This document shows, piece by piece, positions 1,645 to 27,954 of a stretch of DNA of 64,000 nt (position 1 is the first letter of the stretch; each line of letters opens with the position of its first letter). The stretch covers positions 4,553 to 68,552 of the forward strand of contig CAZRYM010000004.1 in assembly GCA_964604305.1 (NCBI GenBank), in the 5' to 3' direction. The notes beneath the pieces are model-generated. The model saw only the letters and a list, made by a program, of their open reading frames with translations, was not told the DNA's origin and made no database searches. Both the position numbers and the translations under genes were made by a program. Source of the stretch: an uncultured Thermotogaceae bacterium. Lineage in GTDB: Bacteria; Thermotogota; Thermotogae; MWEM01.

Positions 1645-3641
1645 CAAAGCAGGAAGAAAAAGCAAAAAAACGTATAGAGGACTTGAGAGAAAAAATTGAG
1701 AAACTCGATTACAATTATTATGTTCTAGCCTCTCCAAAAGTTAGCGATCATGAGTATGATCAGCTTTTCAAAGAACTTGTTGAATTAGAAGAAGAATATC
1801 CTCAGTTTTTTTCAAAAGCCTCTCCAACTCAGAAAGTTGGCTCCAAGATATTAAAGGATTTCAAAAGAGTTGAGCACTCCCAGCCAATGCTAAGTCTTGA
1901 TAATACCTACAATGAAGAAGATATTTACGCCTATTCAGAGAGAATCAAAAGAAACAACCATGAGTCCTTTCATTATTGTGTTGAACTCAAGATCGATGGA
2001 GTATCCTTTGCCGCTAGATATGTGGAGGGGAAACTGGACAAGGGTATTTCCAGAGGAAATGGCGTTTTAGGAGAGGACATAACCGAACATCTCAAACAAA
2101 CTAAGGGGATCCCCAAAAAGCTCAACGAACCAATCAATCTGGAAGTCAGGGGAGAAGTTTACATGCCGGAAGAAATCTTTGTGCAGGTAAACAAAGTTCG
2201 TGAGGAGAATGGCCTAGAAGTTTTTGCCAATCCCAGGAATGCAACAGCAGGAACATTCAGACAATTAAATACAATAGAAGTCAGAAAACGGGGTATAGGA
2301 TCATTTACATACTCAATCATTGAACCTGAAAAGTTTGAAATCACAACTCAAACTCAGATGCTTGAACGACTAAAAGCCCTTGGGTTTGTTGTGGAGACAC
2401 ATCACAAAAGGGTTAATTCAATAGCTGATGTAATCGATTATTGGCAGAGATGGACACAGAAGAGACATGAGCTTAACTTTGATATTGATGGGCTGGTTGT
2501 GAAAGTTGATGAATTAGGGTTACAAAAAAAACTCGGAACTACTTCACATAGTCCAAGATGGGCAATTGCTTTTAAATTTCCAGCTGAACAAAAAGAAACG
2601 ACTCTGGAATCGGTTGTTTGGAGTGTGGGAAGAACAGGAGTAATTACCCCGGTTGCACAGCTTGCCCCTGTAAATCTTGCCGGAACAACTGTAAAAAACG
2701 CCAACCTTCATAACATGGACAACATTCGGGAAAAAGATATCAGAGAAAAAGACAAAGTTATAATCGAAAAAGCCGGGGAGATCATTCCACAAGTTGTCAG
2801 TGTTTTAAAAGAGAAGCGAACCGGTAGAGAAAAGAATATCCAATTGCCTGAGAATTGTCCTGTTTGCGGTGGGGAAGTGGGGAAAACCAAACCTGAGGAA
2901 GTTGCCATCAGATGCCTAAATCCAGCGTGTCCGGCAAAAGTGAAACGTGCTTTACAAACTTTCGCTTCAAGAGAGGCAATGAATATCGAAGGGTTGGGGG
3001 AAAAGATTATACACCAGCTGGTGGAAAGAGAACAAGTGGAAGATGTGGCTGATATTTATTTCTTATCAGAAGACAAGTTAATAACGTTGGATAGAATGGG
3101 TCAAAAGTCAGCTAATAACCTTTTGAGAGAAATTCAACAGAGTAAGAACAAACAGCTACATAATCTTTTAACAGGCTTGGGAATTCCTAACGTAGGTAAA
3201 AAGACGGCAAAGGAGATTTCAAAACATTTTACTTCTTTGGATGAAATTGCAAAAGCTGGCGTAGAAGACCTTAAAGAGATAGAAGGCGTGGGAGAAGAGA
3301 TGGCTAGAGGCATTTGCCGTTTTTTTAATAACGACAGGGTAAAAACAATCATAGAAAAATTTAAGAAGGCTAATGTTAAATTGTCAGAGGAAAAGAAAGA
3401 ACAAAAGGGAACCCAATTGGTAGGTTTGAAATTTGTTATTACAGGAGAGCTAGAAACTGCTACAAGATCTGAGATTAAGGAAATGATTGAAACAGAAGGT
3501 GGTGCAACAACTAGTGCTGTTTCCAAAAAAACTGATTATCTTCTTTGCGGTGAAAATCCGGGAACAAAATTGGAAAAGGCAAAAAAACTGGGTATAACTA
3601 TTATCTCCGAGAGGGATTTTTACAATCTGTTGAATAGATAG
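1641..3641 (+). CDS. ligA: NAD-dependent DNA ligase
   Basis: 666 aa. The adenylation motif is CVELKIDGVS (KxDG). The zinc finger is CPVCGGEV...CLNPACPAK. HhH and C-terminal BRCT regions are present. Confidence 0.95.
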   Translation: MTKQEEKAKKRIEDLREKIEKLDYNYYVLASPKVSDHEYDQLFKELVELEEEYPQFFSKASPTQKVGSKILKDFKRVEHSQPMLSLDNTYNEEDIYAYSERIKRNNHESFHYCVELKIDGVSFAARYVEGKLDKGISRGNGVLGEDITEHLKQTKGIPKKLNEPINLEVRGEVYMPEEIFVQVNKVREENGLEVFANPRNATAGTFRQLNTIEVRKRGIGSFTYSIIEPEKFEITTQTQMLERLKALGFVVETHHKRVNSIADVIDYWQRWTQKRHELNFDIDGLVVKVDELGLQKKLGTTSHSPRWAIAFKFPAEQKETTLESVVWSVGRTGVITPVAQLAPVNLAGTTVKNANLHNMDNIREKDIREKDKVIIEKAGEIIPQVVSVLKEKRTGREKNIQLPENCPVCGGEVGKTKPEEVAIRCLNPACPAKVKRALQTFASREAMNIEGLGEKIIHQLVEREQVEDVADIYFLSEDKLITLDRMGQKSANNLLREIQQSKNKQLHNLLTGLGIPNVGKKTAKEISKHFTSLDEIAKAGVEDLKEIEGVGEEMARGICRFFNNDRVKTIIEKFKKANVKLSEEKKEQKGTQLVGLKFVITGELETATRSEIKEMIETEGGATTSAVSKKTDYLLCGENPGTKLEKAKKLGITIISERDFYNLLNR

Positions 3642-3666
3642 TGCACTCTTACATTGAAAAATCTTA

Positions 3667-4827
3667 TTAATTTGAAAACTTCGAAATCCATTCTTTAAAG
3701 GCATACAATAATTGTGTATCAAGTAACAAGTAAAAGATTGTCCCAAGCAAAACAAAAAGAATATCCGGTCCCCAAGTCGCAAATATGGGGTTAATGTGCC
3801 AGGGACTCCAACGATCGGCTCTTCCCATAGCAGCCATCCACTGTGTTGAGCCCTGATAAAGTGCAATGAGCAGGAAAGTAAAGATGACACTCCAAGCTTT
3901 GCTTTTTATATTTAATGCAAGCGACAGAGGAACGCCCAATATGGCGATAACAAGCGGACCCAAAGATTGTGCATAACGTGTATGGAGTTCGACTTCAAAG
4001 GAGAAGGTTTCCCGATTGTTTATTCCCCTTTTTTTATTTTCACGAATGATGTACAACAGTTCGCTTGAGGTCATGTTGTATTGATTCTTATTGGTGAGTA
4101 GAAAATAGTAATTAATATCAGCGTTGATCATCTGCTTTTGTTCATCTGAAATAGGGCGTTGAATCATTTTTGAATCCTCTGTAGCAGTGTATATTTTCAT
4201 TTCAGAGAGATCCCAAATGTCTCTATCATTATCATAAGTTATCTGTTCAGCATAATAAATATCCATTATGTTTTTTTTCGAGTTGATATCGTAAAGAAAA
4301 ACACCGTTTAACTCTTTCCTGTTTGCATATACTCTTTTCATAAAAAGATATCTATCATCACTGAGAAGTAGGAATTTATCAATTCCCGAAGAAAGATAAA
4401 TTTCTGCCTGTCTGTTTCGATAAAGCTGTGGTACAACAGATTCTTTTAAGAAGAAAGTAAAAATAGATAAGATTATTCCCAGTATCAAAAAAGGAGTAAC
4501 GATTCGTTTTAATTTGATGCCATGTACTTGAAGGGCAATAATCTCGTTATTTGACTCTAATTTTGATAGCAACCAAAAGATTGATAAGAGAACCCCCACC
4601 GGAATGGCTTGGGGAATATATCTTGGGATTTGTTGCAAAATAAATGGAAACATTCTCCAAAATGACATGTCGTTTCTAACAATTTCTGATGACACTTCTA
4701 TTAGGATAAATACGTTGGCATATAATAAAAATCCCCCAAAACCAAGAATAAATGGCAATACCGAGGATTTGATAATGTATCTCTTCAAGATACTCAAATC
4801 TTTTCCTCCGTTCTCATTTTCTAACAA
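3667..4827 (-). CDS. LptF/LptG-family (YjgP/YjgQ) LPS export permease
   Basis: 386 aa. TM segments lie at both ends around a large central periplasmic beta-jellyroll-like domain. It is paired with a paralog immediately upstream. Confidence 0.7.
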   Translation of the reverse strand: MLENENGGKDLSILKRYIIKSSVLPFILGFGGFLLYANVFILIEVSSEIVRNDMSFWRMFPFILQQIPRYIPQAIPVGVLLSIFWLLSKLESNNEIIALQVHGIKLKRIVTPFLILGIILSIFTFFLKESVVPQLYRNRQAEIYLSSGIDKFLLLSDDRYLFMKRVYANRKELNGVFLYDINSKKNIMDIYYAEQITYDNDRDIWDLSEMKIYTATEDSKMIQRPISDEQKQMINADINYYFLLTNKNQYNMTSSELLYIIRENKKRGINNRETFSFEVELHTRYAQSLGPLVIAILGVPLSLALNIKSKAWSVIFTFLLIALYQGSTQWMAAMGRADRWSPWHINPIFATWGPDILFVLLGTIFYLLLDTQLLYAFKEWISKFSN

Positions 4828-6031
4828 ACTGCTCTTTCATAAAATAAATGATTTTTGTATCCAGTAAAATGAATAACAACAAACCTAAAAAAAGAAAGAT
4901 TAGATCAGGTGTCCATACAGCCAAAGAGGGGTTTAACCTATACCTGGTGTTGGCATTGGAAGCGACGTTATGTAATGCGACACTTTGCATAAAAATTTCC
5001 CCTGCTTTAAAACTACCGATTAACAAAAAGCTGATAACAATACTCCAGGATTTGCTTTTAATGTTTGACACAAGACATATAGATGTGCCTAATAGCGCTA
5101 TAATGAAGGGGCTTAAAGATTTAGCCAATCTGGAATTTAACTCTAGAAATGCCCTGTCTTGCTTTTCAGGAATGTTTAACATCTTATACAATTCTGCAGA
5201 TGTTGAATATTTGAATGGATTTTGTTGGTTATTATCTTGCTGACCATAGATATTGACTTCACTGAAAATACTCATTGCATCCTTCAAAGAATCGCTCAGT
5301 TCTTCAGATAATTCTTCAAATTCAGTTTCATCAAACTCTACATTCAGGGTTAAACCTCTATCATCATCCAAATTAACTACCTGACCGTCTATCATTCTCC
5401 AATTGTCATTATCAGTTCGTTTTTCCAATTCATCTGCAAAGATTGTCTTGACAGATGATTGTCCAATTTCATAAACAATCACATCATCCAGGGTATGGTT
5501 ATTGATGGGTTGTTTGACGTAGAAATACTTATTACCTGTAATGGGTAGAAATTTATTTGAAATTGTTGAATATCCGATAGTTTCAGACATAAAATCGGTC
5601 AATTCCCTTTCTTTTTGAGTATTGAACATGGGTATAATGTAATCATTTAATAAAAAAGTAAAGAGACTCAACATCAATCCAAAGATTAAAAAAGGTATTA
5701 CAACGGTTTTGAAGGAAATCCCATGTACTTGTAAAGCCATTAATTCGTTTTTTGTGGACATCTGAGACAGGATCCAAAAAATCGACAACAAAACACCCAC
5801 CGGTATTGCCTCAGCTCCAAGTTCCGGTAAAAAGAAATATAGAAGCTGAAATAATCTCCAGGGTGGTATGCCATAATCGATGATATTTAATGAGAGAAAG
5901 TAAAGCAGATTTACACTGACAAATATTATAAATCCAAAAAAACCCAGAAAAAACGGGGATATTCCATTTCTCCAAACATATCTGTTAAGTGTTTTCAAAT
6001 TACGGCTCCTTCTACAATGCTCAAGATACAT
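4814..6031 (-). CDS. LptF/LptG-family (YjgP/YjgQ) LPS export permease
   Basis: 405 aa. It has the same architecture as its neighbour and overlaps it by 14 nt. Confidence 0.7.
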   Translation of the reverse strand: MYLEHCRRSRNLKTLNRYVWRNGISPFFLGFFGFIIFVSVNLLYFLSLNIIDYGIPPWRLFQLLYFFLPELGAEAIPVGVLLSIFWILSQMSTKNELMALQVHGISFKTVVIPFLIFGLMLSLFTFLLNDYIIPMFNTQKERELTDFMSETIGYSTISNKFLPITGNKYFYVKQPINNHTLDDVIVYEIGQSSVKTIFADELEKRTDNDNWRMIDGQVVNLDDDRGLTLNVEFDETEFEELSEELSDSLKDAMSIFSEVNIYGQQDNNQQNPFKYSTSAELYKMLNIPEKQDRAFLELNSRLAKSLSPFIIALLGTSICLVSNIKSKSWSIVISFLLIGSFKAGEIFMQSVALHNVASNANTRYRLNPSLAVWTPDLIFLFLGLLLFILLDTKIIYFMKEQFVRK

Positions 6032-7496: not shown

Positions 7497-9206
7497 ATGA
7501 CAAATGGCAAATCAATTTATAACAGTTTAAAAAAATGCTATCCTGAGAATGTTGAATATTTATATCATGAGATTGAGCAAAAAATTGTCCGTTTCAATGT
7601 AAGTCAGATTGAAGAACAAACTCACGTATTAGAAGAAATCAACGCAATTCTAATCACTTACGCAGATACACTCAGAGGGGACGATTCCCCTCTGAGTGTT
7701 TTGAGGTCCTTTCTTTTGGAATATGTGCAGACATCGTTCAATACAGTCCATCTTTTACCGTTTTTCCCCTATTCATCTGATGATGGATTTTCAGTGTTGG
7801 ATTATGAATCTGTTAATCCCAATTACGGAAGTTGGGAAGATATTCAAAAGCTCTCAAGCGAATATAAGTTGATGTTTGATGCAGTCATCAATCACATATC
7901 CCAAAAAAGCTATTGGTTTCAGTCTTTTTTGAAGGAAGAAGAAGTCTTTAAAAATTACTTCATCTGTGTCAACGAGGATGAAGATCTTTCTAAAGTAACC
8001 AGACCTAGAGCAACACCATTACTGACTGTGTTTGATACCCCTTCTGGCAAAAAACGAGTTTGGACGACCTTTTCTACTGATCAAATTGACTTGAATTATA
8101 AGAATCCGGATGTTTTACTCAAAATTATAGATATCCTTTTTTTGTACATTAAAAAAGGTGCAACTTTAATCAGACTTGATGCTATCGGCTATCTGTGGAA
8201 AGCTCCAGGGACTTGTTGCATCCATCTTGACCAGACCCATGAAATTGTGAAATTGTTTAGAAGTTGTTTGGATGCCCTAAAGAAAAACGCTTTGCTGATT
8301 ACCGAAACAAACGTTCCCCATGATGAAAATATCAGTTATTTTGGAAGCGGGAAAGACGAGGCACACATGGTTTACAATTTCCCCCTCCCTCCTCTTGTAT
8401 TACATGCATATCTTCAAAAGTCTTCAAGAGATTTAAACAGTTGGGTTGAAAATTTGTGTTATCCTGGGACGAGTGCAACGTATTTTAACTTTTTGGCTTC
8501 TCATGACGGGATTGGCTTGATGCCTTTAAATGGACTGGTGAAAGACAGCTTTATAAATGCTTTAGTCAAAAGATGCGAGGAAAATGGGGGCAGGATCTCA
8601 TACAAACGCAATGAGGATGGAACACAGACTCCTTATGAGATGAACATTACATATTTTGATGCAATAAGTGAAAGGAAAAATTCTCCAGATGATAATATCA
8701 GAAAATTCTTGGGAGCTTATTCAATTGCCTTTGCCTTGAAAGGCATCCCGGGGGTCTATATACACAGTTTGCTGGGATCGGTTAATTGGCAGGAGGGGGT
8801 AATGATCAATGGTCATAACAGGGCAATTAACAGAGAGAGAATCGATTTAGAAAATCTCATTGCTCAGCTCCAAGACAAAGATTCCAGAAGAAATAATATC
8901 TTTTTTGGTATGAAAAAGATGCTTGATGTGAGAGCGTCTCAGAAGGCGTTTTCGTTAAAGGCTGATCAAAAGGTTATTCATGGGGATAATAGACTCTTTA
9001 TCATCCAAAGGTCATATGACGGCGATTGTGTTATCGTGATTATAAACTTGACTGAAGAGCAGATGAGTGTTGATCTTCATGAAATGAATGGATATGATCT
9101 TTATCGTGATATTCTGACCAATGAAAAATATCATCGTTATACAAACCTTGAGGCCTATGGGTATCGTTGGCTTAAAAGAGAAAGGGGTGTTTCCGATGAA
9201 AAATGA
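7497..9206 (+). CDS. GH13_18 sucrose-phosphorylase-family glycoside phosphorylase. Substrate unknown: sucrose, glucosylglycerol or glucosylglycerate type
   Basis: LITYADTL...HLLPFFPYSSDDGFSVLDY...GSWEDI...FDAVINHIS...IRLDAIGYLWK aligns with the conserved blocks of sucrose phosphorylase. Confidence 0.75.
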   Translation: MTNGKSIYNSLKKCYPENVEYLYHEIEQKIVRFNVSQIEEQTHVLEEINAILITYADTLRGDDSPLSVLRSFLLEYVQTSFNTVHLLPFFPYSSDDGFSVLDYESVNPNYGSWEDIQKLSSEYKLMFDAVINHISQKSYWFQSFLKEEEVFKNYFICVNEDEDLSKVTRPRATPLLTVFDTPSGKKRVWTTFSTDQIDLNYKNPDVLLKIIDILFLYIKKGATLIRLDAIGYLWKAPGTCCIHLDQTHEIVKLFRSCLDALKKNALLITETNVPHDENISYFGSGKDEAHMVYNFPLPPLVLHAYLQKSSRDLNSWVENLCYPGTSATYFNFLASHDGIGLMPLNGLVKDSFINALVKRCEENGGRISYKRNEDGTQTPYEMNITYFDAISERKNSPDDNIRKFLGAYSIAFALKGIPGVYIHSLLGSVNWQEGVMINGHNRAINRERIDLENLIAQLQDKDSRRNNIFFGMKKMLDVRASQKAFSLKADQKVIHGDNRLFIIQRSYDGDCVIVIINLTEEQMSVDLHEMNGYDLYRDILTNEKYHRYTNLEAYGYRWLKRERGVSDEK

Positions 9207-10293
9207 GCAGAAGGATATTCAAGAGCTTATCAAAAAGTACGAGAGTTCGATTCTTTCTGATATTGATTTAACGAATACAAACCAAATCCAACCATCTCTT
9301 TTGGCGAATGCCCAAAAGGTTATCAATAACCAACTCATTCCAGAAACAATTAACATACAGATGCCGCATTCTGACGAAGAAACAAAAGAACGAATGAGAT
9401 ATGTCACAGCTTTGGAGATCAATCAGAAAATTGATAGAATACCGGTATTTTATATTCCACAAGGAAAAGTGGAATTTACTAGTTTTGAACGCCTATCAAT
9501 TCCCGCTGTGATTGGAGCAGCTTTGTTTGGATTAATTTTCTATTATGCCTTTGGTTCCTTCTTTAAAGAACCGCTTTATTCCACTCTGATCGGTATGCCA
9601 ATTGGGGCTGGTTTTTTTGTTTGGCTTTTTTCAAAGGTTATTAGACACCCCTTGATGAGTAAAATGGTCAAATGGGTAAGCGTTGCCGGACTTGCTGTTA
9701 TTACCATAGGGGCTGTTTTTTCCGGACTCAAGAAAACAATTGTATTCAAACCGAGAATCTCATTTTTGCAGTGGTTGTGGTTGACAATTTTAACTATATT
9801 AACTTTTTGGATTCTACATCTTTTTAAACCTAGAAAAGCAGATAATAGTGAGGAAATTGAACGTTGCTTGAAAGGGCAGCTGAAGATATTTCTTTTAGAT
9901 GTTTACGAAATATGCACATTTTTGCTGAAGGAAAATACTGAAAAACCGTTAACAGAAACAGGTCCATTTAAAAATGAACCCCAAAAAAATATGTTCTTTG
10001 AAAATTCACAACACATTGCATCTTCTGTACAACAGATGACATACGCTGTAAATAATCAGGATAAAGAAGCTGCTTTGTTATCAGTCAACAGTTTTTTGAA
10101 CAGTTTGAATTCTTTGGGAATTCATGAGAAGAATAATGAGAAAATGTTTAAATACACCAAAGAAGATTCAGATTACTATGACAGCTTTGGTATTATTCGA
10201 GATGGAGATATGGTTGAACAGCTATATAGTTCATGGGTAGATGATCAGGAAAGGTGTGTTTTTAAAGGGAAGGTAAAAAAGGTTAAAAAATGA
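9196..10293 (+). CDS. Polytopic membrane protein of unknown function
   Basis: The start is placed at the internal ATG 9196, preceded by GGGGTG. An N-terminal soluble region of about 110 aa is followed by about 4 TM helices and a C-terminal soluble domain of about 140 aa. It overlaps the upstream phosphorylase by 11 nt and the downstream ATPase by 4 nt. Confidence 0.5.
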   Translation: MKNEQKDIQELIKKYESSILSDIDLTNTNQIQPSLLANAQKVINNQLIPETINIQMPHSDEETKERMRYVTALEINQKIDRIPVFYIPQGKVEFTSFERLSIPAVIGAALFGLIFYYAFGSFFKEPLYSTLIGMPIGAGFFVWLFSKVIRHPLMSKMVKWVSVAGLAVITIGAVFSGLKKTIVFKPRISFLQWLWLTILTILTFWILHLFKPRKADNSEEIERCLKGQLKIFLLDVYEICTFLLKENTEKPLTETGPFKNEPQKNMFFENSQHIASSVQQMTYAVNNQDKEAALLSVNSFLNSLNSLGIHEKNNEKMFKYTKEDSDYYDSFGIIRDGDMVEQLYSSWVDDQERCVFKGKVKKVKK

Positions 10294-12311
10294 GAGAAGA
10301 AGAAAAAAAAACCAGACATATATTTGGACTTGATTTTGGAACATCAAATACACATATGAGTATATCCACTGCGGCAGAAGCTTTTCCGATAGTTGATGAT
10401 GTAAAGCTTGAATCAAACGCTTCAGTTCCTTCTGTGATACTTTATGATGAAAGGACTTTTGAAGTTCTTGGGTTTGGGCAACCCGCACTGGAAGAATGGT
10501 ATTCAATGAGCAGTTCACAGAGAAAGAAGTATACCCTTGGCACCGGTTTCAAACAACGCCTTGCATTCAACAAGCGAGCAGAAACAGAGACTGAATTGTT
10601 TATGGAAGCCTTATTTTCAAATCTCGAAAAACAAAAAATCTTTGAAGTTAAAAATTTTATGAACAATACTGAAATGGCATGTGGTGTTCCTTCAAAGACC
10701 ATCGAAAGCCATACCCAAAAAATATCAACAATTCTATCAAAGTTAATAGGACGCACACCAGTACTGATAGAAGAACCTTTAGGTGCTCTTTTTTACCATT
10801 TACTTAGAAAGGATATTACCAAAGAAGATGGTCGTGGTGGTGTATTGGTCATTGATTTTGGTGGGGGAACATTGGATCTGGCCTATATTAAAAATTTTAA
10901 AATTCAAAAAGTCTGGGGCTCTCCTTTAATTGGGGGGATTCTATTTGATGATCTCTTTTATAATCTATTTCTTGAGCAGAATCCCAAAGTTAAATCAACC
11001 ATCGAAAAAGAAGGCTTAAGTGGATATCTACGAACTGTTTTATTTAAGAACTTAAAAGAAAAATATTCTGTTTTGAATGCTACTTCAGGAAATCCTCAAT
11101 TTAGCGAGAATATTGTCTTTGGAAGTTCATTATACGGAACTTTGAAAATACCAAATTTAGAATATCTGTTAGAGAAAATGAGGCATTATCAAATGAGTAA
11201 GGAATTGAAACACGATTTGATGGGATCCAATTATTTGGATAGGATAAGCGTTGATGAAAAAATAGATTTACCAAAGATTATTACTCAAGAAGTATTACGA
11301 GGTAAAAGAGAATATGAGATTAGAACTGATACTGTTTCTCTGGTAATTTTAACAGGCGGCAGCAGTCGATGGCAATTTTTTATAGATATCATTGAAAAGG
11401 AATTTCCATATACCAGAATTTTGGCATCATCTGATCCTGAAGCAACCATTAGCAGGGGTCTTGGGCTTTGTTATTCTGCTAAACTTTACGAAAAAAAGGT
11501 GCGTTCTCAATTAAGTACAACCAAAGGAGAACTGATAAAAAGACTGGAAGATTCATACAAGAAATCCTTTAAAGCCTCTTTAGAACAATACACTCACACA
11601 GTTTATTCCATCTATTCACATGTCATTCAAACAGTTGTTTCACGGTTTATAGAAAAAGGGGGTTCAATAGCCGAACTTGAAGGACACTTGCGAGAAGCCT
11701 TTTCGGAAAGACAATTTGAGTTAGAGCGGTTAAATGAAGGATTCTTACAAAAGATTAATTACGAGATTGACGAAAAGACAAAAGAAGAATTAAGCAGATG
11801 GTTCAACCGTTCTTTAATCAATTATGAATTTCTTGATAAGACAAGTGTTGGAAGTGAAAAACTTATCAATGCAAATCGCGATTTGAGTATTTTGAATGAT
11901 GTTGTGTACTCCAGAATAACAGTCATCTCATCGGTTATTGTCGGTATTTTTTCAGGGACATTACTGGGTGGAGGAGGTATAGCACTAATTACCGCCGGTC
12001 CGTTGGGATGGTTGGGAGGATTTATCGCGGGTGTTTTATTCGCAATTGCATCTGCTATGGGATTAAAAAAAACTACTACAGATGCAATGAAGAAAATTAA
12101 AATTCCCAAATGGGTTATGAAAACACTTTTTATATCAAAAAACAGAGTGATAAAAAATGCAAAGAAAAAGCTTGAAAAGGATTTAACGCATTCACAAAAA
12201 AAGATTTACGAAACCTTTTTAAAACTTCTCAGAGAGAGTGATGAAAAGCTGGAATTACTCATAGAAGAACAGATTCAGGAGATCAGCTATTCAAATATCT
12301 TGGATTTTTAA
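10290..12311 (+). CDS. Hsp70 nucleotide-binding-domain-like ATPase with coiled-coil and C-terminal glycine-zipper membrane anchor. No substrate-binding domain
   Basis: Hsp70 phosphate-1 (GLDFGTSNT), phosphate-2 (VLVIDFGGGTLDL) and adenosine (ILTGGSSRWQF) motifs. The membrane anchor is near the C-terminus: GIFSGTLLGGGGIALITAGPLGWLGGFIAGVLFAIASAMGL. Confidence 0.6.
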   Translation: MREEEKKTRHIFGLDFGTSNTHMSISTAAEAFPIVDDVKLESNASVPSVILYDERTFEVLGFGQPALEEWYSMSSSQRKKYTLGTGFKQRLAFNKRAETETELFMEALFSNLEKQKIFEVKNFMNNTEMACGVPSKTIESHTQKISTILSKLIGRTPVLIEEPLGALFYHLLRKDITKEDGRGGVLVIDFGGGTLDLAYIKNFKIQKVWGSPLIGGILFDDLFYNLFLEQNPKVKSTIEKEGLSGYLRTVLFKNLKEKYSVLNATSGNPQFSENIVFGSSLYGTLKIPNLEYLLEKMRHYQMSKELKHDLMGSNYLDRISVDEKIDLPKIITQEVLRGKREYEIRTDTVSLVILTGGSSRWQFFIDIIEKEFPYTRILASSDPEATISRGLGLCYSAKLYEKKVRSQLSTTKGELIKRLEDSYKKSFKASLEQYTHTVYSIYSHVIQTVVSRFIEKGGSIAELEGHLREAFSERQFELERLNEGFLQKINYEIDEKTKEELSRWFNRSLINYEFLDKTSVGSEKLINANRDLSILNDVVYSRITVISSVIVGIFSGTLLGGGGIALITAGPLGWLGGFIAGVLFAIASAMGLKKTTTDAMKKIKIPKWVMKTLFISKNRVIKNAKKKLEKDLTHSQKKIYETFLKLLRESDEKLELLIEEQIQEISYSNILDF

Positions 12312-12392
12312 ATCAGAAAAACAACAGATGCAATTTATAACGTCAAAACATATGATAGAATTGTCATATCAATTATTTTGGAGGTAGACTCT

Positions 12393-12860
12393 ATGAAAAG
12401 ATTAATTTTAGTAATGATGCTGATGGTAATGGCTGGAATTATTTTTTCTGCCATGATGGCAACAACAGATGACGGCAGAAGGGTTGTGTTGAATAACAAC
12501 GGAACATGGGAATGGTTGAATCAACCACAGCCAACTCCTTCACCTCAAGCTCGATTGCTTTATGATATTACAGGTTCCTGGAAAATTTCCTTTACTATTG
12601 GAATCTTCGATGAAAGTTTTGATATGGATATATCATTGGAAAACGGTTCTTATATTGCGCTTTGGCATGGAACTTTTTCAGATGAAAAATACCCAATTAC
12701 AGTGCTAAACGAAAGGGAGATTAAATTTCAGGGGAAGTCATTCCACAATGGTGTTTTATCATTTGATGCCACAATAAAAGATTCGAATAACATGCAGGGA
12801 ATAGCTTCAAGTAGTGGAACCTTTGCAAAATCAGGTTCATTTAAAGCAGTTAGAAAATAG
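12393..12860 (+). CDS. Small secreted or exported protein, hypothetical
   Basis: Signal-peptide-like MKRLILVMMLMVMAGIIFSAMMA. GGAGGT sits 8 nt upstream of ATG 12393. Confidence 0.45.
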   Translation: MKRLILVMMLMVMAGIIFSAMMATTDDGRRVVLNNNGTWEWLNQPQPTPSPQARLLYDITGSWKISFTIGIFDESFDMDISLENGSYIALWHGTFSDEKYPITVLNEREIKFQGKSFHNGVLSFDATIKDSNNMQGIASSSGTFAKSGSFKAVRK

Positions 12861-27598: not shown

Positions 27599-27954
27599 TG
27601 GTGGAGGCGGGGGGAATTGAACCCCCGTCCGAAAGTAGCGTATAGAAGGCATCTACGTGCGTAGCTTTTGTTTTAATTTCGGATCAACCAGGTACAAAAG
27701 CAAACCCCGTTAATCCTATCCGCTAAATTGTCCTTATGCTCATTGCGGAAATGAACATAAGTGAGCTCGAATTATCGTCGCTCTTTCAGTCCGTCTCGAG
27801 CTAAACAGTCTGAAGAACGGTAGCCTTTTTTAGGCTGCTAAAGCAAATTCAGTTTCGTCAATTAATTTGATTGTTCACCCGTTTAACGAGTCTGATGAAA
27901 ACTCGGCACGCTTCCTTTTATCCGTCAACTTCCGTCGAACCCTGATCGCCCCCC
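27599..27954 (-). ncRNA. ssrA: tmRNA (transfer-messenger RNA)
   Basis: The minus strand reads 5'-GGGGGCGAUCAGGGUUCGACGG...GGACGGGGGUUCAAUUCCCCCCGCCUCCACCA-3'. The acceptor and T-arm pair up. An internal reading frame ends GAC GAA ACU GAA UUU GCU UUA GCA GCC UAA, giving a tag ...DETEFALAA. Confidence 0.85.

Follow-up and report, generated by a model that had tools for sequence, protein, structure and literature searches.

The ATPase domains of Hsp70 proteins are known as the engines of a peptide-binding clamp. The mitochondrial import motor is an example of an Hsp70-type ATPase working with a GrpE-type factor at a membrane: soluble mtHsp70 is tethered via Tim44, together with Mge1/GrpE, and grips the incoming polypeptide through its substrate-binding domain. 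In bacteria, grpE followed by dnaK is a common gene order. Several other proteins, namely the eukaryotic STCH/HSPA13 and HSPA12, the bacterial YegD, and the NBD-only HSP70s of GAP1-N2 systems, have the Hsp70 nucleotide-binding domain (NBD) without the canonical peptide-binding domain, and STCH is associated with membranes (microsomes). A different architecture is found in the bacterial dynamin-like proteins (Nostoc BDLP, Campylobacter DLP1/2, LeoA/B/C, IniA, and DynA), in which a dynamin GTPase head is mounted on a long stalk of helices with a hydrophobic membrane-inserting hairpin (the "paddle") followed by a return helix, and whose genes occur as an operon pair. The GAP1-N2 conflict systems are GTPase centered, combine HSP70, GrpE, and NBD-only HSP70s, and are found chiefly in Actinobacteria and Firmicutes (PMC7159879). 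Here, we describe a gene pair from an uncultured Thermotogaceae bacterium, located in a stretch of 64,000 nucleotides (the window), whose architecture differs from those of the HSP70/GrpE systems (PMC7159879) and the Hsp70-like CnuD proteins (PMC11090510).

The pair consists of gene A (9196..10293, + strand), which encodes a 365-aa polytopic membrane protein, and gene B (10290..12311, + strand), which encodes a 673-aa membrane-anchored Hsp70-like ATPase without a substrate-binding domain, as assigned from its open reading frame (ORF), homologues, and fold model; all features below lie on the same strand. In the ORF list of the window, the reading frame of gene A spans 9121..10293 and that of gene B 10290..12311. 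We place the start of gene A at the internal ATG at 9196, which has an SD-like GGGGTG 6 nt before it and corresponds to the start position in homologues; translation may instead start farther upstream, at 9157 or 9121. Bases 10290 to 10293 read ATGA, and the start of gene B thereby overlaps the stop of gene A. This overlap, and the translational coupling of B to a polytopic membrane protein, had both been proposed in a preliminary description of the locus and are supported by the ORFs.

Protein B begins with an Hsp70-type NBD (10317..11474; aa 10 to 395). It contains the three motifs that had been singled out as diagnostic of this domain: the phosphate-1 motif DFGTSNT (10332..10352; aa 15 to 21), the phosphate-2 motif IDFGGGTLD (10851..10877; aa 188 to 196), and the adenosine motif LTGGSSRWQ (11349..11375; aa 354 to 362). 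Among 40 homologues, with identity down to 21%, the invariant residues are D15, F16, G17, and T18 in the first motif; D189, F190, G191 to G193, T194, and D196 in the second; and T355, G356, G357, and W361 in the third. Because of this invariance and a confident fold model (AF2 pLDDT, 80.4; pTM, 0.73), we conclude that the motifs are not there by chance. Comparison of the 40-member family with E. coli DnaK using hhalign gave a probability of 96.9% (E = 1.8e-10) and aligned IDFGGGTLD with YDLGGGTFD of DnaK. In addition, D15, K88, E162, D189, T194, and D196 are invariant among the 40 homologues, and their positions match the Hsp70 catalytic set; K88 was equated with DnaK K70 by local pattern only (FKQRL versus IKRLI), not by the hhalign register. 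The fold of B is nearer to Hsp70/Hsp110 than to other actin-fold families, and this fold comparison, together with the alignment to DnaK, supports the Hsp70-type assignment made earlier. The head of B thus has the fold, motifs, and catalytic residues of DnaK/Hsp70; there are no biochemical data on its ATPase activity. Lobe IB seems shortened compared with DnaK, although this was judged by eye and is a weak inference.

A match to an actin-fold sugar kinase family had been named in advance as a result that would refute this assignment, and these kinases (ROK, hexokinase, and MurK) were neither the closest fold nor the closest family for B. The window's B sequence alone scored 18.1 bits against Pfam HSP70, under the gathering cutoff of 20.6, and its searches of Pfam, NCBIfam, and PDB sequences gave only sub-threshold Hsp70/MreB/ParM matches. 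A precomputed PF00012 match is recorded for many homologues, and the few public names found for them are "hypothetical protein," "Hsp70 family protein," and "molecular chaperone DnaK." The earlier statement that neither protein matches a family is therefore incorrect for B, which matches the Hsp70 family. For A, we found no Pfam family, and Pfam, NCBIfam, and PDB sequence searches gave nothing meaningful.

Beyond the head, B departs from DnaK: in place of the interdomain linker, the β-sandwich substrate-binding domain, and the lid, it carries a helical stalk and a membrane hairpin. After aa 383, the model is helical throughout with no β-sandwich, and sequence matches of B to DnaK, HscA, and Hsp70 end inside the NBD. 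The stalk (11436..11810) is formed by helices at aa 383 to 456, 460 to 473, and 475 to 507 (AF2 pLDDT, 82 to 92) and contains conserved G457 and G458, the latter invariant in 40 homologues. It is followed by a Gly-rich hydrophobic helical hairpin (11871..12065; aa 528 to 592), identified by hydropathy and modeled by AF2, with low pLDDT, as helices at aa 528 to 559 and 571 to 589. The hairpin includes a 41-aa Gly-rich hydrophobic stretch (aa 552 to 592) and a conserved GPxG turn, in which P571 is nearly invariant across the 40 homologues. The protein ends in a Lys/Arg-rich juxtamembrane segment, with 15 Lys/Arg among the 47 residues after the hairpin, and a long C-terminal helix (12066..12308; aa 593 to 673), the helix itself comprising aa 617 to 664 (pLDDT, 72 to 85). 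Model and sequence thus agree with the preliminary description both in the absence of a substrate-binding domain and lid and in the succession from a helical stretch through a hydrophobic hairpin to a basic tail. B fails the criterion for a canonical Hsp70 chaperone (DnaK/HscA/HscC), namely, a β-sandwich substrate-binding domain plus a helical lid; with no peptide-binding β-sandwich, it is therefore not a conventional chaperone. The import motor is only an analogy for the pair, as mtHsp70 is soluble whereas B is itself membrane inserted and has no substrate-binding domain. Although STCH/HSPA13, HSPA12, YegD, and the GAP1-N2 NBD-only HSP70s share the latter property, none has been described as having either a C-terminal stalk plus membrane hairpin or a GrpE-like polytopic partner.

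Protein A is, as had been read from the sequence, a four-helix membrane protein with sizeable soluble domains at both ends (about 95 aa at the N terminus and about 155 aa at the C terminus), according to hydropathy and the AF2 model. Its N-terminal soluble region (9196..9432; aa 1 to 79) contains three helices (aa 2 to 21, 28 to 55, and 61 to 79; pLDDT, 78 to 93), and its membrane region (9481..9822; aa 96 to 209) contains hydrophobic helices at aa 96 to 122, 126 to 149, 152 to 176, and 190 to 209. Glycines G107, G111, G133, and G137 are near invariant among 113 family members. At 50% identity, the family comprises 238 representatives, almost all of them 320 to 400 aa long, and its distant members have two to four hydrophobic segments by hydropathy. 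No J-domain HPD motif was visible by eye in the partner sequences, and, as a further difference from the DnaK system, no J-domain partner is evident for B.

The most informative feature, absent from the preliminary description, is the cytoplasmic C-terminal domain of A (9847..10290; aa 218 to 365), which is predicted to be GrpE-like. It is modeled as a long helix (aa 218 to 249), a helix pair (aa 272 to 306), and a small β domain (aa 310 to 362), with a pLDDT of 71 to 89 over aa 270 to 365. This layout would correspond to that of GrpE, in which a long helix precedes a helix pair, forming a four-helix bundle in the dimer, and a small C-terminal β domain. The only confident Foldseek match of A among 350,542 PDB chains was Thermus thermophilus GrpE (3a6m_B; probability, 0.97; 158 columns), and the next match had a probability of at most 0.12. 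The E value for 3a6m_B was only 0.039, and the TM-score normalized by target length was 0.38. When the 113-member profile was aligned with six GrpE sequences by hhalign, P values were 0.003 (local) and 0.0009 (global), versus 0.29 to 0.41 for reversed controls, and the register was colinear through the helix pair and β domain (aa 273 to 362 with GrpE 94 to 190). Shallower alignments, of 16 to 36 partners with one, three, or six GrpE sequences, were not significant (P = 0.07 to 0.28). Two near-invariant glycines, G308 and G337, fall opposite glycines conserved in GrpE, a C-terminal motif is conserved family-wide, and the β domain is conserved as much as the membrane core. The GrpE likeness was anticipated from this C-terminal motif ahead of the Foldseek and hhalign analyses. 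By HMMER, none of the 113 partner members matched Pfam GrpE (PF01025), even at E values up to 10, and GrpE was likewise missing from the results when the PDB was searched with partner profiles. Because the Pfam model does not detect GrpE in A, the resemblance remains an inference; the domain is probably GrpE-like, and nucleotide exchange and binding to B are inferred only. A, at ~350 aa, also differs from GrpE in that it is integral to the membrane and carries an additional domain at its N terminus.

The pairing of the two genes is conserved. In 15 of 18 independent contexts, the partner gene lies directly upstream of B on the same strand, overlapping it or at most 56 nt away, and these pairs occur in Thermotogota, Planctomycetota, Synergistota, Alphaproteobacteria, and Deltaproteobacteria (at least five phyla or classes). 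Looking in the reverse direction, from three partner homologues, we found in each case a 691- to 698-aa HSP70-Pfam protein immediately downstream. A lack of conserved co-occurrence, which had been named in advance as refuting the module, was thus not observed, and the suggestion that the module is undescribed stands so far, as full-text literature searches brought up no account of it. In three contexts, from two lineages, B has no adjoining partner; B may therefore act without a partner or with a distant copy. No canonical grpE was found near the module when the window and all loci were searched by tblastn with E. coli GrpE, which gave only weak matches, upstream of other Hsp70-like genes. The order of an exchange factor-like gene followed by an Hsp70-like gene mirrors that of grpE-dnaK and that of planctomycete loci in which a GrpE-like gene precedes an Hsp70-like gene. 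Neighborhoods give no functional hint, as they are heterogeneous across lineages and mostly housekeeping; in the window and one other locus (L008), the pair sits, by eye, among ahcY-, purH-, pheS-, and pheT-like ORFs. A defence island or conserved wider context was rejected for the same variation between lineages.

We consider it somewhat more probable than otherwise that A and B form a conserved two-gene membrane module built on a nucleotide cycle of the Hsp70/GrpE type. In this reading, the last strand of the Hsp70-type head of B, taken to be active, leads directly into a ~74-residue helix and on to the helical stalk. At the end of the stalk, a Gly-zipper hydrophobic hairpin would be embedded in the cytoplasmic membrane, and the chain would continue through a basic segment, probably at the membrane surface, into a long return helix. 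A, with four membrane helices and both ends predicted to be cytoplasmic, may associate with B in the membrane via Gly-rich helices, and its GrpE-like domain may dock on lobes IB and IIB of the B head and control the release of ADP and the rebinding of ATP. In canonical Hsp70s, the lobes rotate in an ATP-dependent manner and pass this motion to the interdomain linker; here, the stalk and hairpin would receive it, such that the ATPase cycle alters the parts embedded in the membrane, in conformation or in assembly. The outcome could be membrane remodeling or repair, comparable to the use of GTP by bacterial dynamin-like proteins, or gating or sensing through A. The roles suggested earlier, in membrane remodeling, envelope stress, or conflict, are speculative. 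The analysis establishes the fold and catalytic residues of the head, the lack of a substrate-binding domain, the hydrophobic hairpin, and the conserved pairing of the genes; the GrpE-like function of A, direct A-B contact, transmission of force to the membrane, and the physiological role are all inferred. There is no A-B complex model, biochemistry, or phenotype. A could alternatively be a client, anchor, or effector of membrane-tethered B, for example, a channel or sensor, with a convergent or spurious resemblance to GrpE. We regard this reading as unlikely without dismissing it: GrpE was anticipated beforehand and was the sole confident match in the PDB, the deep-profile alignment was colinear with P values of about 0.001 to 0.003 (0.3 to 0.4 when reversed), and the C-terminal β domain equals the membrane core in conservation. 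We think it very improbable that B is not an Hsp70-type engine but a membrane-anchored, actin/MreB/FtsA-like polymerizing ATPase, whose filaments would form on the membrane and have A as their receptor; B neither passed the family models of the actin/MreB/ParM/FtsA filament ATPases nor was closest to them in fold.

The C-terminal half of B also resembles LeoBC, which raises the possibility of an anti-phage or conflict module related to Leo/Eleos, in which B would be a BDLP derivative with an Hsp70 head in place of the GTPase head and would act in membrane sealing or abortive infection. The PADLOC LeoBC model matched 21 of 40 B family members (best E = 8.4e-11), with model positions of about 327 to 561 of 601 covered by the C-terminal half. 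Eight of 10 forward sequences matched over the full domain, colinearly, at 23 to 38 bits, whereas 5 of 10 reversed sequences gave weaker, partial matches of 12 to 26 bits, with E values as low as 8.8e-7. Forward matches therefore exceed reversed controls by about 10 to 20 bits, but the E values are inflated, because reversed sequences also match, and the LeoBC matches were rejected as proof of dynamin homology. The resemblance is partly architectural, and homology, judged from sequence alone, is unproven. A profile of the C-terminal half found no dynamin or other convincing match in the PDB, and B has no Pfam match to Dynamin_N or a GTPase. Apart from LeoBC/LeoB, the only PADLOC-DB 2.0 matches of B were weak ones to PDC-M61B; being short and motif level inside the NBD, they were rejected as evidence of membership in that system. 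Across 113 members, the partner had no consistent match to defence models, so that both components of one anti-phage system were not matched in that database. As for context, a dynamin-like GTPase pair lies directly beside the module in one alphaproteobacterial lineage only, the one exception to the absence of an accompanying GTPase that sets the module apart from GAP1-N2 systems, and in one context, the module's neighbors are a HepT/MNT toxin-antitoxin pair and a transposase; however, the pairs in the window and L008 sit among housekeeping genes, and none of the loci examined had a viral or plasmid-like context. A defence role is accordingly improbable in our estimation.

The favored module, with its Hsp70/GrpE-type cycle, joins an Hsp70 ATPase domain to a helical stalk and membrane hairpin and resembles bacterial dynamin-like proteins in the head on a long stalk, the inserting hairpin with its return helix, and the paired genes; its head is an Hsp70-type ATPase, A has no NTPase head, and homology of the stalk is unproven. 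Speculatively, and with rather low confidence, the pair could be the ATP-driven equivalent of the bacterial dynamins, in which an Hsp70-type head has taken the place of the GTPase on a dynamin-like stalk and paddle, with a cycle set by a membrane-integral GrpE-like exchange factor. If so, it would represent an unrecognized class of membrane-remodeling or membrane-repair machine in several bacterial phyla. Confirmation would mean that the Hsp70/GrpE cycle has been reused for membrane work otherwise done by dynamin-like GTPases and would provide a minimal two-protein system for how Hsp70 lobe movements become mechanical output. The module is phylogenetically broad, as the 238 representatives of the partner family alone indicate, and it is present in at least one cultured host, Telmatocola sphagniphila.

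The upstream gene (A) lies on the forward strand of the window within an ORF listed at 9121 to 10293. Its likely start is the ATG at 9196, given a Shine-Dalgarno-like element (GGGGTG) 6 nt upstream and homologues that begin at the equivalent residue, and the product from this start has 365 amino acids. The downstream gene (B; 10290 to 12311, forward strand) encodes 673 amino acids, and the ATGA at bases 10290 to 10293 overlaps its start with the stop of A, as the preliminary description had stated. That description had also portrayed A as a four-TM protein with sizeable soluble ends, which agrees with the four hydrophobic helices that we found, preceded by ~95 soluble residues at the N-terminus and followed by ~155 C-terminal residues. 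The three Hsp70 motifs that it had read in B were all located there (DFGTSNT, aa 15 to 21; IDFGGGTLD, aa 188 to 196; LTGGSSRWQ, aa 354 to 362), as was the glycine-rich hydrophobic stretch (aa 552 to 592) with its lysine-rich tail (15 Lys/Arg in the next 47 residues).

As a single sequence, B matched Hsp70 models only weakly: 18.1 bits against Pfam HSP70 (cut-off, 20.6; the MreB and ParM models scored lower still), E values of 3e-5 to 2e-2 against HscA and DnaK in NCBIfam, and 3e-3 against Hsp70 nucleotide-binding domains in the PDB (phmmer). At the level of the family, the sequence evidence is clear. Among 5.8 billion proteins searched, there were 55 relatives of B, mostly of 660 to 710 aa, from Thermotogota, Deltaproteobacteria, and Planctomycetota; the few that are named are called "hypothetical protein," "Hsp70 family protein," or "molecular chaperone DnaK." When 40 of these relatives were aligned (identity down to 21%), D15, G17, T18, F87, K88, E162, P163, D189, G191 to G193, T194, D196, T355, G356, and G357 were invariant; these residues take in all three motifs as well as the catalytic positions of Hsp70. 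This alignment matched Escherichia coli DnaK by hhalign over residues 10 to 243 (96.9% probability; E = 1.8e-10), and the AlphaFold2 model of B is confident (pLDDT 80.4; pTM 0.73). Thus, the family alignment, the match to DnaK, and the model identify the head of B (aa 10 to 395) as an Hsp70-type ATPase. Its catalytic set looks intact, although activity is inferred and there are no functional data. A match to a sugar kinase had been named beforehand as an outcome that would refute the Hsp70 identity; none emerged, and the identity stands.

In the AlphaFold2 model, B is helical throughout after residue 383, with helices at aa 383 to 456, 460 to 473, and 475 to 507, a hydrophobic hairpin (aa 528 to 559 and 571 to 589; low confidence) with a near-invariant proline in its GPxG turn, and a basic segment followed by a long helix (aa 617 to 664). 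This bears out both the helical stretch and hairpin proposed to follow the nucleotide-binding domain and the proposed absence of a substrate-binding domain. With neither a β-sandwich nor a lid in the model past residue 383, B falls outside the canonical Hsp70 chaperones.

The pairing of the two genes is conserved. A word-indexed search returned 11 close relatives of A, and an exhaustive profile search returned 238 representatives at 50% identity, nearly all of 320 to 400 aa; no Pfam family was found for them. In 11 contexts beyond the window, a gene for a protein of 328 to 373 aa with an architecture like that of A lies directly upstream of a B homologue on the same strand, overlapping it or separated by at most 56 nt. 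These contexts are loci from Deltaproteobacteria (L004/5), Telmatocola (L006/7), Thermotogota (L008), Phycisphaerae (L009 and L010), Synergistota (L012), and Alphaproteobacteria (L013 and L014), together with L001, L067, and L068. Reverse look-ups from A homologues found an HSP70-Pfam protein of 691 to 698 aa immediately downstream in all three cases. No A homologue lies beside B in L002/L003 and L066 (P0021/P0022; one clade with shared synteny) or in L069 (P0019), and an A-profile search of six-frame translations of L002, L066, and L069 found no partner. In L069, the B homologue instead overlaps at its end with a 716-aa protein that carries SBP_bac_3 and HD domains. The pair is therefore present in 15 of the 18 contexts, window included, so the lack of co-occurrence that would have counted against the module does not apply.

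Wider neighborhoods differ between lineages and are mostly housekeeping genes in the window and in L008, a 70%-identical Thermotogota relative; thus, context offers no clue to function. A 569-aa ORF (7497 to 9206, forward strand) overlaps the start of A by 11 nt and, by eye only, resembles a GH13/sucrose-phosphorylase-type enzyme. The three-gene order recurs in L008 (ORF at 3205 to 4911) but not in other phyla, and it is thus probably lineage-specific synteny. Just downstream of B is a 160-aa ORF (12378 to 12860, forward strand) with a hydrophobic N-terminus and no Pfam match. In L008, the module is likewise followed by a similar ORF (8019 to 8570), the C-terminal sequence of which is near-identical.

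The upstream proteins share a C-terminal motif (F/Y-D/E-x-F-G-x-I/V-x-x-G-D-x-V ... G-x-V-R/K-K-V), from which the idea of a GrpE β-domain was noted before any test of GrpE. In the AlphaFold2 model of A (pLDDT 76 overall and 71 to 89 over aa 270 to 365), the C-terminal elements follow the order of GrpE: a long helix (aa 218 to 249), a helix pair (aa 272 to 306), and a small β domain (aa 310 to 362). Among 350,542 PDB chains, the top Foldseek match was Thermus thermophilus GrpE (3a6m_B; probability 0.97, E = 0.039), aligned over 158 of 164 target positions, with all other matches at a probability of ≤0.12. We also compared by hhalign a 113-member alignment of A with six real GrpE sequences (that of E. 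coli, taken from its genome record; those of Geobacillus kaustophilus and human, taken from PDB alignments; and three planctomycete proteins encoded in the retrieved loci). A residues 273 to 362 aligned colinearly with GrpE 94 to 190 (P = 0.003, local; P = 0.0009, global), compared with P values of 0.29 to 0.41 for reversed controls, and the near-invariant glycines G308 and G337 fell on conserved GrpE glycines. HMMER-level searches gave no GrpE signal in A, and hhalign with shallower A alignments was not significant. On sequence and model together, we consider a GrpE-like fold for this domain reasonably probable; that it acts as the exchange factor for B is an inference to which we give even chances.

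Gene order grpE-dnaK is common, and the partner-then-B order is the same. It also matches three planctomycete loci in which an Hsp70-like gene is closely preceded by the gene for a 201-aa protein whose C-terminus looks like that of canonical GrpE (L020, 126 to 728; L026, 5237 to 5839; L031, 5204 to 5806). The Hsp70-like protein in these loci has 578 to 607 aa and no hydrophobic segment, and the two genes look like a second, soluble GrpE-like/Hsp70-like pair distinct from the A/B family.

The most likely reading is that A and B together run a nucleotide cycle of the Hsp70/GrpE type, embedded in the membrane. The head of B would bind and hydrolyze ATP, with exchange controlled by the cytoplasmic GrpE-like domain of A. 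The 74-residue helix attached directly to the head would transmit nucleotide-dependent lobe movements to the stalk and Gly-zipper hairpin, and the membrane parts would change conformation or assembly, leading to membrane remodeling or repair or to control of A; the conserved Gly-rich membrane helices of both proteins could pack together. Of this scheme, only the identity of the head, the lack of a substrate-binding domain, the hairpin, and the conservation of the pair are shown; the rest is inference without functional data, but it is specific and testable. As rival readings, A may serve as a client, an anchor, or an effector and not in nucleotide exchange, which we consider less likely; the module may be a Leo-like defense system, which we regard as unlikely; or B may be an actin-like membrane filament, which we hold to be very improbable.

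Residues 401 to 666 of B matched the PADLOC LeoBC/LeoB models of bacterial dynamin-like proteins (E = 1.3e-8). In the family, 21 of 40 members gave such matches (best E = 8.4e-11), and the C-terminal half of B is colinear with LeoBC positions ~327 to 561 of 601. Of ten B-family C-terminal domains, eight matched LeoBC in the forward direction over their full length (23 to 38 bits), and five still matched when reversed (12 to 26 bits; best E = 8.8e-7; partial lengths). The forward excess of ~10 to 20 bits suggests some real signal in the sequence, but much of the score reflects composition and a helix-hairpin-helix layout that is nearly palindromic, and we rejected the matches as proof of dynamin homology. 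Because reversed sequences match and a profile of the C-terminal region found no dynamin in the PDB, we take a "dynamin-like stalk and paddle" as a resemblance in possible working, not as established membership. Bacterial dynamin-like proteins, which are among the closest known systems, have a similar overall layout (nucleotide-hydrolyzing head, helical stalk, hydrophobic hairpin, and return helix) but a different NTPase, and stalk homology is unproven. The behavior of PDLC03841 (LeoBC) with B aa 396 to 673 and homologues, in which 5 of 10 reversed sequences matched with E values down to 8.8e-7, is a caution for automated defense-system annotation: composition and layout can inflate matches to helical proteins that carry a hydrophobic hairpin. 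In one alphaproteobacterial lineage, and in no other locus, two divergently transcribed genes for dynamin-like GTPases directly adjoin the module (L073, 3 to 3532; L014, 1256 to 4755; both reverse strand); one product has 543 aa and a Dynamin_N domain (Pfam, E = 7e-10), and the other has 634 aa and MMR_HSR1.

Another of the closest known systems is DnaK/GrpE, which shares the engine of the module and possibly its regulator, but its output domain differs and its GrpE is soluble. Also close are Hsp70s reduced to a nucleotide-binding domain, such as STCH/HSPA13 and the examples that occur together with HSP70 and GrpE in GAP1-N2 GTPase systems (PMC7159879); none has been described with a stalk, hairpin, or polytopic partner. 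We found no description of the A-B module in the full-text literature searched, which is absence of evidence rather than proof of novelty. The module is well supported, phylogenetically broad, and apparently uncharacterized, with no functional data. Elsewhere in the window, Rfam and ARAGORN detected a single RNA family or tRNA-type gene, a tmRNA gene (27599 to 27953, reverse strand; RF00023, 182 bits) with the tag peptide DETEFALAA.
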